DNA of 64,000 bases from Nitrospirota bacterium (GTDB taxonomy: Bacteria > Nitrospirota > Nitrospiria > Nitrospirales > Nitrospiraceae), in assembly GCA_963701855.1 (NCBI GenBank), contig CAVPBK010000006.1:672001-736000 (forward strand), read 5' to 3'. A program made the translations under genes and the position numbers. Positions 41,104 to 52,439 of the stretch are shown piece by piece. Each line of letters starts with the position of its first letter. The stretch's first letter is position 1. The notes under the pieces were generated by a model that was given only the letters and a program-made list of their open reading frames with translations, was not told the DNA's origin and ran no database searches.

Positions 41104-41795
41104 GATTATTCTCCCATTTTTTGAATAACAATTCGCACGTGTACATGAAATATAGCACCTGAATGAAAAGATGAGACTCTCCTGCGGCTCGTAGCCATTT
41201 CGCTTTAATTGTCAGTCTGTTGGATGTGGATCTTGAGGGTGACCGCATCAGACAAGCAAGCAGTTACGCCGCTAGATCAATCACGAAGGAGGGGACCAGT
41301 GAGAAAACAAGTTAGAATTGGGCCTCCTTTCGATCAGCCCAGCGAGCCGGACGCATCACGGTACTTAATGCCGCTACAGCACAAATGAAGGACAACATGG
41401 CCAAGCCCACCATTAGAAAGAAACCAGCTCGGACGTCGTGGAGGACTACATGATTCATGGTAAGCCCCTCCTCTTGGTGACTATGCTTTTATCCGCTCAG
41501 CCATCCACAAGAACAGACCCAGGGTGCCGTGGGATCCTGCTTCGTCAACCAGCGTCCACAACAGGGACAATGCCTCGTCCAGGCATACCGCTGACGACGC
41601 CTGAGAAACCTTTCGCTAGAAAGTCTCACGCGATCTTGCCTATAGCATAGCACCATTCAGACACCCCCTTGACCATGCTCTTTGTTGTAAGAGTACTGCG
41701 GGGGATACGAGGAATCTATGCACCTTTGGGGGGAACGACCCTCTCGAAAGGGCCAAACAGGCCAGCTGTAAGCTACTAGTACTCCAATGATTCTA

Positions 41796-41817
41796 TCCAT
41801 CGGCTTCAGCCGATGGA
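41796..41817 (-). terminator. Perfect hairpin immediately downstream of the tRNA 3' duplicate
   Basis: TCCATCGGCT-TC-AGCCGATGGA; no clear U-tract. Confidence 0.5.
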
Positions 41818-41818
41818 G

Positions 41819-41866
41819 TGGTGCGCCCGGAGGGACTTGAACCCCCAACCCTCGGACCAGAAGTCC
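41819..41866 (-). repeat. att-site duplicate of the tRNA-Arg 3' half
   Basis: 46/48 identical to 52364-52411. Confidence 0.92.
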
Positions 41867-41978
41867 TACCGGCTACTCCTGAGACAGAAAGTGAACAGGA
41901 ATGACAGACAGCGACGTTACCACTATGGATACTGATGATTAGGCCATTTGGCTCGACCATCAGTAGTGATAGAGGTAC

Positions 41979-42212
41979 ATTGGCAACCACGACCGGCAAC
42001 CCCGACGCGACGAGCGCCCCGATGAGTAGCAGCTCGAGACCACCGGTCGCCTCCAAGACGATCAACGCAACCGGGAAGGTCCGCAGGCGTTCGACCACGT
42101 GGGTATGCCCGGTCTCATCATTGGGTACGACGAACTGTCCTTCGGGCCGCAGGGCAATATCCAACTGCGCCTTTGAGACATCAATACCGACAAACCATGG
42201 GGCAGGTGTCAT
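41979..42212 (-). pseudogene. IS110-family recombinase, N-terminal 78 aa only
   Basis: VGIDVSKAQLD, IVLEATGGLE, LPVVVAN then similarity is lost; GGGAGG RBS. Confidence 0.88.
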
Positions 42213-42229
42213 GATCGCCTCCCTTGGTG

Positions 42230-42385
42230 GCCCATCCTTGCATGATGCGGGCTTGTAGCCCCGTGCAACTGTTCGGGCTCATTCAGGATAAAGGCGTGAC
42301 GACCCTGGCTACTCCTCGGTCTCAGACGACCTCGGCTGGATCGGTCTATCACGCCCTGGGTGAAATGTGTTACGCGATTACACGG
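42230..42385 (-). ncRNA. Candidate IS110 bridge RNA (left non-coding end)
   Basis: 5' hairpin, then GGCGUGA...UCACGCC enclosing a large internal loop, then GCCC-GAACAGUUGCAC-GGGGCU/AGCCC-GCAUCAUGCAAGGAU-GGGC directly upstream of the IS110 ORF. Confidence 0.7.
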
Positions 42386-42918
42386 AATCAGAGAGTAAAG
42401 ATATAAGGTGGAGTTGAGTACACAATGAGCACAATTGGCTCACCAATTTCCACCCATTGCGAACCTGTGAACTCTGTTGGAAGGGAAGCGATCATGTAGG
42501 TTCGAACGATGAGTCAATGAGCATCCAACTATCGTTTTTAAAGAACGGGGAAAAGTCTTCTGGTTGAGCCAAAACTAAAAAGAGGGCAAAAAGTACGAAT
42601 TGACCTGTCTATGCAGAACAGCTAAACGCATCCCCTGCGCTCGGCATTGCTCCGAAGCCAACGGTTTGTTAGGCTTGCCACACCGCTCGGACCATTCTTC
42701 GAACGGATGAGAGTCTTGATCAGACGTGTGCAAGTGAACGTCACTGCGCTGGGCGCCCGCAAGGTGACCGAGACGTGGGTCGGTGAGTGAGGAGGCAATC
42801 GAAGGTACCGTTCCCGGAACGAATCAGTATCAGCATCAGCAGATAATCGCCATAATGAGATCGATCTTCCCTTAACAGGTAACAAGGTACCGGGTTCAGT
42901 CTGAGGCATGGGGGAACG

Positions 42919-43644
42919 ATGAGTTGGGAAACGTCCATGACCAATGAGTTTCCTGAGGCTATTCCACAGGACCGGTTCGTCGCCGGATCATTTGAGAAAC
43001 TGCACAGACAAGGATTTCTGGTGGAGAATACAATCGCCTTCGCGTGTGTCTGCCGCGACGAGGCCACCTTGCCCCTGGTGAAAGATATTGAGAAAACCTG
43101 GGGAGAAGTGTTCATGTTTTCCAGTCTCGGTGGAATGATCATTTTAGGCAAGACCGGATTCTTGGCCGCCCAACAGCATGCCCCTATTGATGAAGGTGGC
43201 ATAGAGCGATCTGTGTATTATGCCCTGCCGCATATTGCCATTGGGCCTCACGGGGAATTCGGCGTCTATTTTCGTCCAGGTCGCCAGAAGGCCTCCCATG
43301 CCTGCGGCGCCTTGATGGCGTTTCAACATGAACTCGAGAGTCGGTCTCTCCAATTGGCGCCCGATCCTGATGATATAGAGCAAAGTTTTCTCAAGCGACA
43401 TCTGTTGGGCAAGCTCCGGTATGGCGATGTCCCGGATTTACCGTCTTTGACCAGGATCGCTCATGCGGTCATCCTCGAAGAACTCGAACGGATGATCCGG
43501 CTGACTGTCGATCCCACGCGAAGCGATTACGGCCTGTTCACCGGGATTCAGATCCACACCCCGAACGGCGGTCACTTCGTGTGGCCTGGGGCCGCCTATG
43601 CCATGAAGAACGGGAAAACGGTGAGCCTGTCCGACGTGAAGTGA
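42919..43644 (+). CDS. LCIB/LCIC-family (theta-type) carbonic anhydrase homologue
   Basis: NTIAFACVCRDE, LGG...G.TG, H.P, PHIAI...G..RPGR..S.ACGAL, VDP...DY..TGIQIH; Cys-His-Cys Zn triad intact. Confidence 0.85.
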   Translation: MSWETSMTNEFPEAIPQDRFVAGSFEKLHRQGFLVENTIAFACVCRDEATLPLVKDIEKTWGEVFMFSSLGGMIILGKTGFLAAQQHAPIDEGGIERSVYYALPHIAIGPHGEFGVYFRPGRQKASHACGALMAFQHELESRSLQLAPDPDDIEQSFLKRHLLGKLRYGDVPDLPSLTRIAHAVILEELERMIRLTVDPTRSDYGLFTGIQIHTPNGGHFVWPGAAYAMKNGKTVSLSDVK

Positions 43645-44257
43645 TAAAGATCACAACATGAAAGGGAAGAGCGACGCGGAACACCTTGCAGACGGTCTTG
43701 GCCGCGAGCTGGCAGTAGTTGACCATGAAATTGTCTGAGGTAGACCAAGCAATTGCTTGAGACCGATCGGATTTCTAAAGCCGTGGATTCCAGATTCTCA
43801 ACCTCTGTCTAAGTGGAGTCCTCCTGCCCTACGGCCACACACACGTCTCCCTCCCACCAAGAAAGGAAGGGGGAGTCTTCTCAATTTCAAATCCTGCCCA
43901 AAAAGGAAACCCCTGAGTCACACAACCAAACAACCAGAGTGGGCCATGCCATGATCCCATTGCGCTATGATTTCCCGAAGCGAATCGGCCCGACGCAGAT
44001 CTGCACCCCGTCTGCTATCGCGCCTACTCGCGAGCTTAGCGCACGACGGTTCGCGTCTATCAACTGGTGCGCCGGGATTGGTTGGGAAAATTCGGAACTC
44101 TTTGGCGAAAACTTCCAGATATGAAATCCTCACTATCCTACCCCCAAGCGCACCGACTTATCAGGGTTGTAAGCGCGAGTTGAACGCCATCACTCGATGT
44201 GCCAAGCAACGGTCTGCCCGTCATCGTATCCCTGAAAGTCGGTGCCCACTGGTCTCC

Positions 44258-44662
44258 TCAGTGTTTAGCCAACCTGCTATCCTGCGTTTCCGTTTCTTTA
44301 TTGTTGATATCGTGAATGGCCAGCACGCTTGTCACACCACCGTTCGCTTTACCGAGTTTCGCCTCAATCCAATCTCCTGGCTCGAATACGTGGCCGTTTC
44401 TCAGGGCTGCGGTGACTGGCAACTGCACTTCCTGCCCATTAAATCGCTCAACGACAAGCGTATCGCCGTCCACGCGCAGGACCTCGCCCTTGATGGTTTG
44501 AATGCCCTGCCGTTCTTCTTGACTACACTGCAGGAGATTCGGGAGACCACCTTTTCGACTGGCACAAGGGTCAAGGCGAAATGCCTGCGATGCATCGGCC
44601 AGACTCAGGCACAGCACAACACCGCATGAGAGGACACCGATGATTTTTGGAAGGGATACCAT
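44258..44662 (-). CDS. Exported hypothetical protein (OB-fold-like)
   Basis: AAGGAGG RBS, signal peptide, TIKGEVLRVDGD. Confidence 0.7.
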   Translation of the reverse strand: MVSLPKIIGVLSCGVVLCLSLADASQAFRLDPCASRKGGLPNLLQCSQEERQGIQTIKGEVLRVDGDTLVVERFNGQEVQLPVTAALRNGHVFEPGDWIEAKLGKANGGVTSVLAIHDINNKETETQDSRLAKH

Positions 44663-44848
44663 GACAACCTCCTTGTTAATGATTGGTAGTTCGAAACCCG
44701 TGTCTTCCAACCCCCTGAGTTCGCCAGGGAGTCATATGACCTTTCATCTATACGTTTACACAACGGGTACATGAATGAGTATCAGGGGATTTCTGAGAGT
44801 TCCTGGAAAAATACCTGAGCAGGCCTGTGGGAGAAGTGGATGCTCACG

Positions 44849-44959
44849 ATAGGCAAACGGTACAAACACCGTAAAGGACAGCGCTGAAGCTCCGACAACT
44901 AGCGCGGCGAGATGCCGCACCCCTGGAATAAAGTATGCCACCAGCAGGGAATATTTGCC
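44849..44959 (-). repeat. 111-bp dedA fragment, inverted relative to 49891-50001
   Basis: 107/111 identical. Confidence 0.92.
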
Positions 44960-49581: not shown

Positions 49582-50175
49582 ATGGAAACTGGCATCGATT
49601 GGATTGCGCAATATGGCTATGGGATGCTCTTTGTCTTACTGGTGCTGGGCATTGTGGGACTCCCAGTACCCGACGAAACGCTACTGACGTTTGTCGGCTA
49701 TCTGTGTTTCAAAGAAAAACTGCACATCGTGCCCGCGCTAGCCACAGCCTTCCTGGGGAGTGCCAGCGGGATTACGTTGAGCTATGTCATCGGACGTGTT
49801 GTTGGGGTACAAGTTGTCTCGAAGTGGGGACCCTACCTTCATCTTCGCCCTGATCACCTCGCCCAGGCACAGCGCTGGGTTCTCCATTGGGGCAAGTATT
49901 CCCTGCTGGTGGCATACTTTATTCCAGGGGTGCGGCATCTCGCCGCGCTGGTTGTCGGAGCTTCGGCGCTGTCCTTCACGGTGTTTGTACCGTTTGCCTA
50001 TACCGGCGCGTTACTCTGGTCTGCCACGTTTATTGGGCTTGGCTATGTGGCGGGCGAAGAATGGAGTCAGCTCTCCTCCGTCCTGCATCCCTCCTTGATC
50101 ATTGGGGCAATCGTGGTAATGCTGGTGCTCGCAGGTGTGTTGCTGGTCTTGCGGCGACGGGGCAGGCTGAGCTAG
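49582..50175 (+). CDS. dedA: DedA-family membrane protein
   Basis: GLPVPDETLL, G...SY.IGR, FIPGVRH, ALLW...LGY. Confidence 0.9.
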   Translation: METGIDWIAQYGYGMLFVLLVLGIVGLPVPDETLLTFVGYLCFKEKLHIVPALATAFLGSASGITLSYVIGRVVGVQVVSKWGPYLHLRPDHLAQAQRWVLHWGKYSLLVAYFIPGVRHLAALVVGASALSFTVFVPFAYTGALLWSATFIGLGYVAGEEWSQLSSVLHPSLIIGAIVVMLVLAGVLLVLRRRGRLS

Positions 50176-50363: not shown

Positions 50364-50852
50364 TCACATGATAGTGTCCAGTTCCATGCCAGCTGCTCTG
50401 AGTGCTTTCGCCAGATTGTTTTGCCAGCGCCCGGTGCTGTCCATGGTCGTACAGGGAACGTCAGCGATCTCGGGTGGGATCTCGGCGCGATCTTTCAGGA
50501 GCGCATACACTCTGGTGTGTCCCAATTTCCCAAGGAAGTAATATAGATCAAGCACGACATTCCGACGCGTGCGAGGTGGGGGTTGCGGTCGGGTGTTTTT
50601 CGAAGAGCCCACATCGTCGGGTGTCAGGATCACGACCGCGAATCCCACGTCGGCGTTGCGTTCAACCTTCTCAATGAGCGTTTTGCCTGTGTCCGCTTGC
50701 TCGTGCAGGATGATGGCACGCAGCCCAAGCCGCTCGATGACGAGCCTGACCTCCTCCTCCGTCCCGGTATCATGACCATGAACGATGAAAATATCTCGCA
50801 TCGGTGCACAGTCTGCCATAGCTAGCTGACCTTTCGGCGGGACCGCCTCCAT
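50364..50852 (-). CDS. TIR-like nucleotide-binding domain protein (CAP12/Pycsar-type TIR), divergent active-site motif
   Basis: IFIVHGHD, ILHEQ...TLIEK.E, FAVVILTPDD, RTRRNVVLDLYYFLGKLG. Confidence 0.82.
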   Translation of the reverse strand: MEAVPPKGQLAMADCAPMRDIFIVHGHDTGTEEEVRLVIERLGLRAIILHEQADTGKTLIEKVERNADVGFAVVILTPDDVGSSKNTRPQPPPRTRRNVVLDLYYFLGKLGHTRVYALLKDRAEIPPEIADVPCTTMDSTGRWQNNLAKALRAAGMELDTIM

Positions 50853-52265: not shown

Positions 52266-52363
52266 AGCGGCCAGGGCTGGCCTTTCTTCTTGTGCCGATT
52301 TTCTACACTTCCTCTACATTCATATTTTTCTTACAAGACATAACTCATAGACTATTGATTTAT

Positions 52364-52439
52364 TGGTGCGCCCGGAGGGACTTGAACCCCCAACCCTCGG
52401 ATCCGAAGTCCGGTACTCTATCCATTGAGCTACGGGCGC
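52364..52439 (-). tRNA. tRNA-Arg(TCG)
   Basis: GCGCCCG TA GCTC AATGGATA GAGT A CCGGA CTTCGGA TCCGA GGGTT GGGGG TTCAAGT CCCTC CGGGCGC ACCA cloverleaf. Confidence 0.95.

Follow-up and report, generated by a model that had tools for sequence, protein, structure and literature searches.

The LCIB-type theta carbonic anhydrase (theta-CA) gene found in the stretch of Nitrospirota DNA analyzed here (64,000 nt, hereafter the window) is better supported as a gene under selection that was displaced from a calcium-transport cluster than as the foreign island cargo described in the first-pass annotation. Judged from homologous loci, the gene belongs to a Nitrospirales clade whose normal place is in a cluster of cax, DUF5132, HMA_2, and P1B-ATPase genes. 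This genome (G000, 97% complete; C5, C6, C9, C11, and C12 are its contigs) holds the cluster on one contig and the theta-CA gene in a tRNA-associated island on another (table 1).

Table 1. Features of the theta-CA island and its boundaries, in window coordinates
Feature	Position	Strand	Basis
IS110 fragment lying upstream of the porin relic; the genome has four more copies at 74%	41793..42363	-	PF01548 positions 1-77 of 155
Left edge of the island, a second copy of the tRNA-Arg 3' end (55 nt, 91%)	41812..41866	.	Direct repeat
Porin relic, comprising the first codons of the alginate-export-family porin gene of the cluster and the DNA upstream of them	42625..42756	+	Sequence match
Conserved theta-CA leader	42761..42918	+	Homology with the DNA immediately preceding theta-CA in relatives that have the cluster (L034 from 9547)
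LCIB-type theta carbonic anhydrase gene, 241 aa	42919..43644	+	Motifs, PF18599, PDB matches, AlphaFold model
DedA/VTT gene, judged outside the system	49582..50175	+	Copy of C12 module; not in relatives' theta-CA loci
tRNA-Arg(TCG), 52364-52439, with right boundary repeat, 52357-52411	52357..52439	-	Repeat and Rfam

The host is, from its gene content, a comammox Nitrospira, in agreement with the nitrifier proposed in the first-pass annotation: amoA is found on C5 within an amoCAB-ccm region (read from translations), a hao-type multiheme gene (PF13447) lies about 16 kb away, and the named relatives of the genome are Nitrospira or Nitrospirota. Public runs holding the window's DNA are labeled soil. 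Other inorganic carbon genes in the genome include an intact beta-CA, DabAB, SulP, and a split beta-CA, and no match to alpha-CA or SbtA was found in the 97% complete assembly. The split beta-CA gene is interrupted by frame breaks (C6:1124144-1124568; L019, L020) and adjoins dabAB (C6:1117-1123 kb). A comparison of L039:364-4247 with C11:8376-11009 indicates one variable slot that houses two different CAs, as the theta-CA gene in L039 is flanked by the same hypothetical protein and response regulator genes that border a beta-CA and bestrophin pair in this genome.

The theta-CA reading frame is free of stops, with a possible alternative start at Met7, and contains the five motifs noticed in the first-pass annotation in the same order (CRDE 45-48, PHIAI 104-108, RPGR 119-122, ACGAL 128-132, and TGIQIH 208-213). 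It is the sole match genome-wide to the Pfam family LCIB_C_CA (PF18599), scoring 156.8 bits against a cut-off of 25 and covering model positions 1-221 of 223. All eight matches among PDB sequences are LCIB-family proteins, the best being Chlamydomonas LCIC (143 bits) and LCIB (142 bits), followed by PtLCIB4 and similar chains (52-61 bits). The AlphaFold model, based on a 73-sequence alignment, has a pLDDT of 93.7, and its top eight Foldseek matches are again LCIB-family chains (TMq 0.71-0.86, E 1e-16 to 1e-20), the next being beta-CAs at a TMq of 0.46 or less; the LCIB fold is matched at TM 0.76-0.86. Membership of the LCIB/theta-CA family is virtually certain. The fusion partners of distant homologs (ankyrin, EF-hand, and others, in a set of 56 long proteins) show no common theme; six of these proteins have EF-hands.

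The theta-CA class is defined by the zinc ligands C61, H117, and C141 in 5B5Y numbering, as tabulated in PMC13147460 (Table 2). Alignment to PtLCIB4 equates these with C45, H105, and C129 of the window protein, the predicted Cys-His-Cys site anticipated from the motifs, and places H87 opposite H88, the residue of the PtLCIB4 H88A mutant. The second-shell residues H87 and R119 are present, as is the Asp after the first Cys ligand (D47 here), which we take to be part of an Asp-Arg dyad. Among 105 locus-derived homologs, R46, D47, E48, H87, R119, and C129 are invariant, and C45 and H105 are each kept in 104. The site is complete yet of the Arg (LCIB/LCIC) type, because the ligands and H87 match PtLCIB4 while R46 aligns with the site of the PtLCIB4 S47R mutant; the constitutively active diatom subtype represented by PtLCIB4 has a small residue (Ser or Cys) after the first Cys ligand where the window protein has Arg46.

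The closest characterized relatives by sequence, Chlamydomonas reinhardtii LCIB and LCIC (PDB 5K5W, 5B5X), share the fold, the CRDE motif with its Arg, and the Cys-His-Cys set, and the residues given for them in PMC5876011 as His162/161 and Arg194/193 are 32 residues apart, as are H87 and R119 here. Unlike these algal proteins, the window protein is a bare 241-aa domain lacking a transit peptide or extensions, it has no LCIB-LCIC pairing because the genome has a single clade member, and its gene is linked to a calcium-transport cluster rather than to a Rubisco or pyrenoid context. The diatom theta-CAs PtLCIB4 (5B5Y) and Pt43233 have the same zinc ligands and H88 equivalent and give the highest TM-scores (0.82-0.86), but are only 22-25% identical and have Ser or Cys in place of the Arg. 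Purified LCIB-type proteins, including Chlamydomonas LCIB/LCIC, are described as lacking activity in the review PMC5876011, and complementation evidence for LCIB activity is cited in PMC13275658. We consider the window protein quite probably active on the strength of its predicted site, and likely to be a cytoplasmic zinc carbonic anhydrase; no signal peptide is evident by eye.

In related genomes and metagenomes, the genes accompanying theta-CA (named using Pfam for 40 chosen proteins and NCBIfam for 15) encode a Cax Ca2+/H+ exchanger that exceeds the TIGR00378 cut-off, between one and four DUF5132 proteins, proteins with HMA_2 alone or joined to DUF454, and an HMA_2-bearing P1B-ATPase, together with ParA, TolC-like, alginate-export porin, TMEM175, and bestrophin-like proteins and a small unnamed Gly-rich protein. 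The window's family has the order porin, theta-CA, and then the rest of the cluster convergently. In a second Nitrospirales family (L011-L014), theta-CA starts 12 nt past the cax stop on the same strand, and L011, L013, and L014 share the one-strand order cax, theta-CA, DUF5132, DUF5132, HMA_2, ATPase. Genome G098 has two near-identical theta-CA loci (L008 / L035:10010-10734), the one next to the ATPase cluster being frameshifted (or containing a sequence error) and the other intact.

Among the best 80 of 189 metagenome loci, which include some near-duplicates, 30 of the 36 with at least 58% identity to the window protein have one or more of the genes for Cax, DUF5132, HMA_2, the ATPase, and the small Gly-rich protein. 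None of the 44 loci below 58% has cluster genes (22 of these are 5 kb or longer), and 22 have a DASS-type transporter instead. The six loci of at least 58% identity without cluster genes are L052 (1.5 kb, porin only) and L037, L038, L039, L040, and L072, the last five being the closest of all to the window protein (93-97%), with only L038 and L039 exceeding 5 kb. As no cluster gene is found at these five loci, detached copies evidently persist; L015 (58%) likewise lies outside the cluster.

The association extends to whole genomes. In an even sample of the class (401 genomes), 39 match PF18599, of which 17 belong to the window's clade according to fetched loci (four weak matches aside). All 17 carry a close ATPase (60% identity or more), and conversely the clade is present in 17 of the 20 genomes with a close ATPase. 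A close ATPase is also found in G031, G254, and G422, which have no theta-CA match. Only one of the other 22 PF18599 genomes (G251) has a close ATPase, and some genomes lacking the window's theta-CA clade have ATPases of a more distant group (50-58%). In the genus sample, theta-CA is present in 6 of 85 genomes, the ATPase in 7, and both in 5 (hypergeometric 4e-6). This value and the co-occurrence counts in general are overstated because the genomes are kin and not independent. G093 has theta-CA and no ATPase match in an assembly of 910 contigs. Theta-CA also codiverges with two cluster proteins (Spearman 0.84 and 0.67), which we do not count as independent evidence. We consider a functional tie between theta-CA and the cluster reasonably likely.

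A quick tree of 105 rows, built with no algal outgroup, places the window gene among cluster-linked rows of Nitrospiraceae type, in a group of 37 rows (SH-aLRT 100) nested within one of 51 (97); an algal or other distant donor is rejected on this placement. No relatives of theta-CA were found on PLSDB plasmids. Members of other theta-CA clades (L153-L158, L160, L161; L077, L082, L085, L090, L099, L103, L106, L113) neighbor SbtA, SulP, NhaB, CitMHS/ArsB-type, DASS, and Mrp genes, a recurring setting of anion transport and Na+/H+ exchange. In L146:8552-10368 (G196) and L118 (G329), the gene directly after a bestrophin gene encodes a theta-CA of yet another, divergent type, the third, which has the motif CADD and is 24-27% identical to the window protein.

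In this genome the cax/DUF5132/HMA_2/DYGTG P1B-ATPase/ParA/TolC cluster is present on C9 (303858-317714; L029, L030) without theta-CA. Between its porin and Gly-rich genes lies the theta-CA leader, ending ~20 nt short of the start codon (C9:307381-307557), followed at C9:307579-307640 by the last ~25 theta-CA codons, 74% identical to G030. This short segment together with the preceding leader reads as a theta-CA deletion scar. At the DNA level, the island theta-CA is 91-94% identical to L041/L042/L054 and 86% to G030, and the C9 cluster is 87-90% identical to G030/L047/G031 and 69-82% to L041/L042/L054, with the small Gly-rich protein giving a mixed signal on the nearest kin of the C9 cluster. 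A different Nitrospira lineage is the likely origin of the island copy. We infer that a cluster fragment arrived from another Nitrospira and that the native gene was deleted, with no order of events implied, and the island copy is likely the replacement of the deleted gene. Horizontal acquisition, as first suggested, is therefore a likely event, with another Nitrospira as the source, but the function it brought was not new to the lineage, as the C9 scar points to an earlier native copy.

The island location recognized in the first-pass annotation holds: the island is integrated at a tRNA gene and is enclosed by 55-nt direct repeats that are 91% identical. None of the genome's 22 PF00589 (integrase) matches falls inside it, its composition is not atypical (GC 55.5% vs. 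55.6% for the genome), the GC3 of theta-CA (0.62) is inside the genome interquartile range (0.61-0.68), and many of its pieces are repeated elsewhere in the genome. By these features the island appears to be an old, immobile patchwork. The porin relic is 81% identical to L034:6688-6802 and 75% to the genome's own porin (C9:305737-305856), and is joined to the theta-CA leader by a deletion, 2.7 kb being missing relative to L034. The relic/leader junction is common to L040, and contigs from three public DNA runs read through it with 0-1 differences, which rules out an assembly artifact (run X1 in this check may be the source sample). A separate breakpoint common to L038:3280-3315, L072, and L041 corresponds to window position 42791, where a tRNA-like 3' end is joined to the theta-CA leader, apparently marking an independent insertion site upstream of the gene.

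Several other elements of the island were considered. The decay of neighboring genes noted at first reading is seen in part: the IS110 element, the porin gene, and one DedA gene (a 3' piece) are present as remnants, whereas open frames remain for IS3 and for the DedA gene at 49582. The idea that DedA forms part of the same adaptation was discarded, as DedA occurs in no theta-CA loci of the relatives fetched, only in the window's own two, and the DedA region is a 97-99.8% copy of C12 DNA. Window 43988-44959 is a 99.8% copy of C12:32313-33284, and window 49551-50001 matches C12:33174-33624 at 97% in inverted orientation. Within DedA, an inverted repeat of 111 nt (44849-44959) flanks a segment of 4.9 kb, which points to a DedA gene having been the site of an inversion or insertion; the window DedA looks whole and the C12 copy diverges past residue 140. 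Window 50364-50852 (minus strand) encodes a stand-alone CAP12/Pycsar-type TIR domain (PF10137, 88 bits), the usual sensor domain and cyclase not being nearby. A shared regulatory RNA upstream of theta-CA was rejected, Rfam returning the tRNA and two sub-threshold matches only. A repeat at 42403-42466 has seven matches in the genome, one of them upstream of the intact beta-CA (C11:9419-9479), and also occurs at the start of L039; given its seven copies, the match at 42406-42466 is not CA specific, and the repeat is possibly a mobile-element end.

That the gene has been kept intact, as first noted, is borne out by pairwise dN/dS values of 0.14-0.44 (34 pairs) across theta-CA genes. On the window's own branch there are five clear replacements and six silent changes (binomial p ~0.03 against neutrality), and the island theta-CA is under purifying selection. 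It is improbable, in our estimation, that the protein is instead noncatalytic or decaying, either inactive alone like purified LCIB/LCIC or an island allele drifting to loss. The Arg46-type site would fit such a copy, as would the five private replacements (Y25F, Y98S, V157F, D216N, K234T), the frameshifted second copy in a genus relative (L008/L035), and upstream DNA of porin origin in which promoter and terminator scans of the theta-CA region stayed at chance level, with no sigma-70-like site above chance. The window allele also has the lowest Pfam score in the genus (157 bits vs. 169-182 for full-length copies). Against decay stand the departure from neutrality and the retention of every site residue; position 98 is Tyr in 93 of 105 rows and mostly aromatic, but is Leu in PtLCIB4. 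RNA libraries of four studies also contain near-identical pieces of the gene or leader, one without difference over 188 nt. These runs held 6-10% of the sampled words, DNA carry-over is possible, and the pieces have no bearing on habitat, level, or strand, so they provide only a weak hint of expression.

The protein might instead be an active CA serving as a general inorganic-carbon or pH enzyme, as first proposed, equilibrating CO2 and bicarbonate for reductive TCA carboxylases or pH control, its link to the cluster being only historical, and we regard this as possible though unlikely. The detached copies, with dN/dS of 0.19-0.38 between the window gene and L037, L039, and L040, are under purifying selection in unrelated neighborhoods, a beta-CA gene adjoining dabAB is disrupted here, and Nitrospirota are rich in dissolved inorganic carbon (DIC)-toolkit genes (PMC13147460 section 13). 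The sister theta-CA clade (40-52%) adjoins SbtA, SulP, NhaB, and CitMHS-type/Na+/H+ antiporter genes, which supports a bicarbonate role for the family. However, the gene is rare in the genus and tracks the cluster ATPase in all 17 clade genomes of the class sample, a pattern that a general housekeeping CA does not need. An intact beta-CA and DabAB are already present, and a free cytoplasmic CA tends to short-circuit a DAB-built bicarbonate pool, as described in PMC10880623.

The cluster ATPase passes the NCBIfam models TIGR01525 and TIGR01512, and its surroundings resemble the ferrosome fez clusters, for which 10.1101/2020.01.10.902569 describes R-rich N-termini, small GxxxG membrane proteins, and a P1B-ATPase. 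The corresponding features here are R-rich N-terminal domains (RVRLR-type in HMA_2), GxxxG small proteins (DUF5132), and the P1B-ATPase core. This layout raises the prospect of a ferrosome-like or metal-efflux platform for Fe, Mn, or Zn in which the CA gives bicarbonate or protons or simply receives zinc, a reading that we judge improbable. The ATPase fails the ferrosome test because DYGTG (119 of 120 homologs) replaces the D[Y/F]SCA motif of the P1B-6 ATPase FezB and SNGSA (109 of 117 read) replaces its HNxxT. No feo or fur genes were recognized among the cluster proteins scanned, and unlike in fez clusters a CA and a Ca2+/H+ exchanger are present; cax is constant, with a second Na/Ca exchanger in some loci. 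As the membrane motifs of the ATPase contain the oxygen-donor residues Asp, Thr, Ser, and Asn and no Cys or His, a hard cation (Ca2+, Mg2+, or Mn2+, for example) is its likely cargo.

A second resemblance is to the calcyanin (ccyA) neighborhood of cyanobacteria that produce amorphous calcium carbonate inside their cells (iACC); calcyanin itself is marked by two or three long GlyZip repeats split by Gly-Pro. In Microcystis, according to 10.1101/2024.07.07.602159, ccyA is accompanied by cax, two DUF5132, CoBaHMA-DUF454, and CoBaHMA genes that are partly coexpressed with it, and in Fischerella NIES-4106 it lies near cax, two cation ATPases, and a CA (PMC8890360). The Nitrospirales cluster shares cax, two or more DUF5132, HMA_2(CoBaHMA)-DUF454, and HMA_2-only proteins with the former, and cation ATPases and a CA with the latter, but adds theta-CA, ParA, TolC-like, porin, TMEM175, and bestrophin-like genes. 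It also differs in that neither this genome nor 22 cluster loci yielded a (GlyZip)3 calcyanin: a search with our own GlyZip pattern, rather than a true calcyanin sequence, gave no matches in 26,921 frames of the genome and one low-complexity match in the cluster loci, while recovering the single GlyZip present in a Gloeothece control. A related module, with a DFGTG rather than a DYGTG ATPase, is found in a cyanobacterium on a Gloeothece verrucosa plasmid (L162:8911-18939), which encodes the P1B-ATPase, DUF5132, a degenerate HMA_2-ATPase-like protein, a single-GlyZip His-rich protein, and DUF1269. Intracellular carbonates are reported for magnetotactic Nitrospirota of another class in PMC12710302, and Ca-carbonate inclusions in Nitrospira are not announced in the literature searched, by title or abstract opening.

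The residence of theta-CA in the cluster of relatives, its deletion, and its probable reacquisition together suggest a likely role in bicarbonate supply to a calcium-handling membrane system. We propose a membrane compartment or microdomain to which DUF5132 and other small, glycine-rich membrane proteins would give its shape and into which cations would be moved by the DYGTG ATPase and Cax, and that the CA beside it would turn CO2 into bicarbonate and a proton, the former serving as counter-anion and the latter being exchanged by Cax. For a self-acidifying ammonia oxidizer, such a system could act as a Ca/carbonate/pH buffer. That the LCIB-type theta-CA is active and serves this exchanger and pump module in trans after loss of the cluster copy is, in our view, the most likely of the readings considered, though an evenly poised proposition. 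A mineral Ca-carbonate product of the cluster is possible but rather unlikely. The same low expectation attaches to the further idea of a calcyanin-free intracellular calcium-carbonate compartment in some nitrifying Nitrospira, in which the DYGTG ATPase and Cax would load Ca2+, DUF5132 and HMA_2 proteins would shape the membrane, ParA would space the bodies, and theta-CA would supply carbonate. The store might then buffer acid from ammonia oxidation and release CO2 for fixation, and the enzyme might be important enough that its native loss was matched by a copy from another Nitrospira.

Theta-CA in Nitrospira is already on record, as Supplementary Table S3 of PMC13147460 contains one row for a Nitrospira japonica NJ11 protein (Ga0226279_112176, 241 aa). 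It is alike in Pfam family, length, and genus name, but the table row gives no neighborhood, activity, or history. A family member is also named for Nitrospira sp. MA-1. The view that bacterial members are little studied agrees with the literature searched, this one tabulated protein aside: a search combining Nitrospira and LCIB surfaced only an unrelated-looking paper, none of the literature on DUF5132, DYGTG, DFGTG, CoBaHMA, or PF19991 concerns Nitrospira by title, and no paper on a Nitrospirales cax/DUF5132/HMA_2/P1B-ATPase cluster was found by title or abstract opening. The protein belongs to a known family, and its genomic setting is what is new in the literature searched.

This setting offers a specific hypothesis for what LCIB-type proteins of bacteria do outside photosynthesis, and points to a putative calcium/carbonate module in globally important nitrifiers. 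The history of scar and replacement provides a natural hint of selected function. A single-subunit bacterial protein of the Arg type also bears on the observation that algal LCIB is inactive when purified yet rescues CA mutants. Should Ca-carbonate bodies be a product of the cluster, intracellular calcification would extend to nitrifiers lacking the usual marker gene, and such bodies would help define the minimal machinery required and give comammox bacteria an acid-buffering mechanism.
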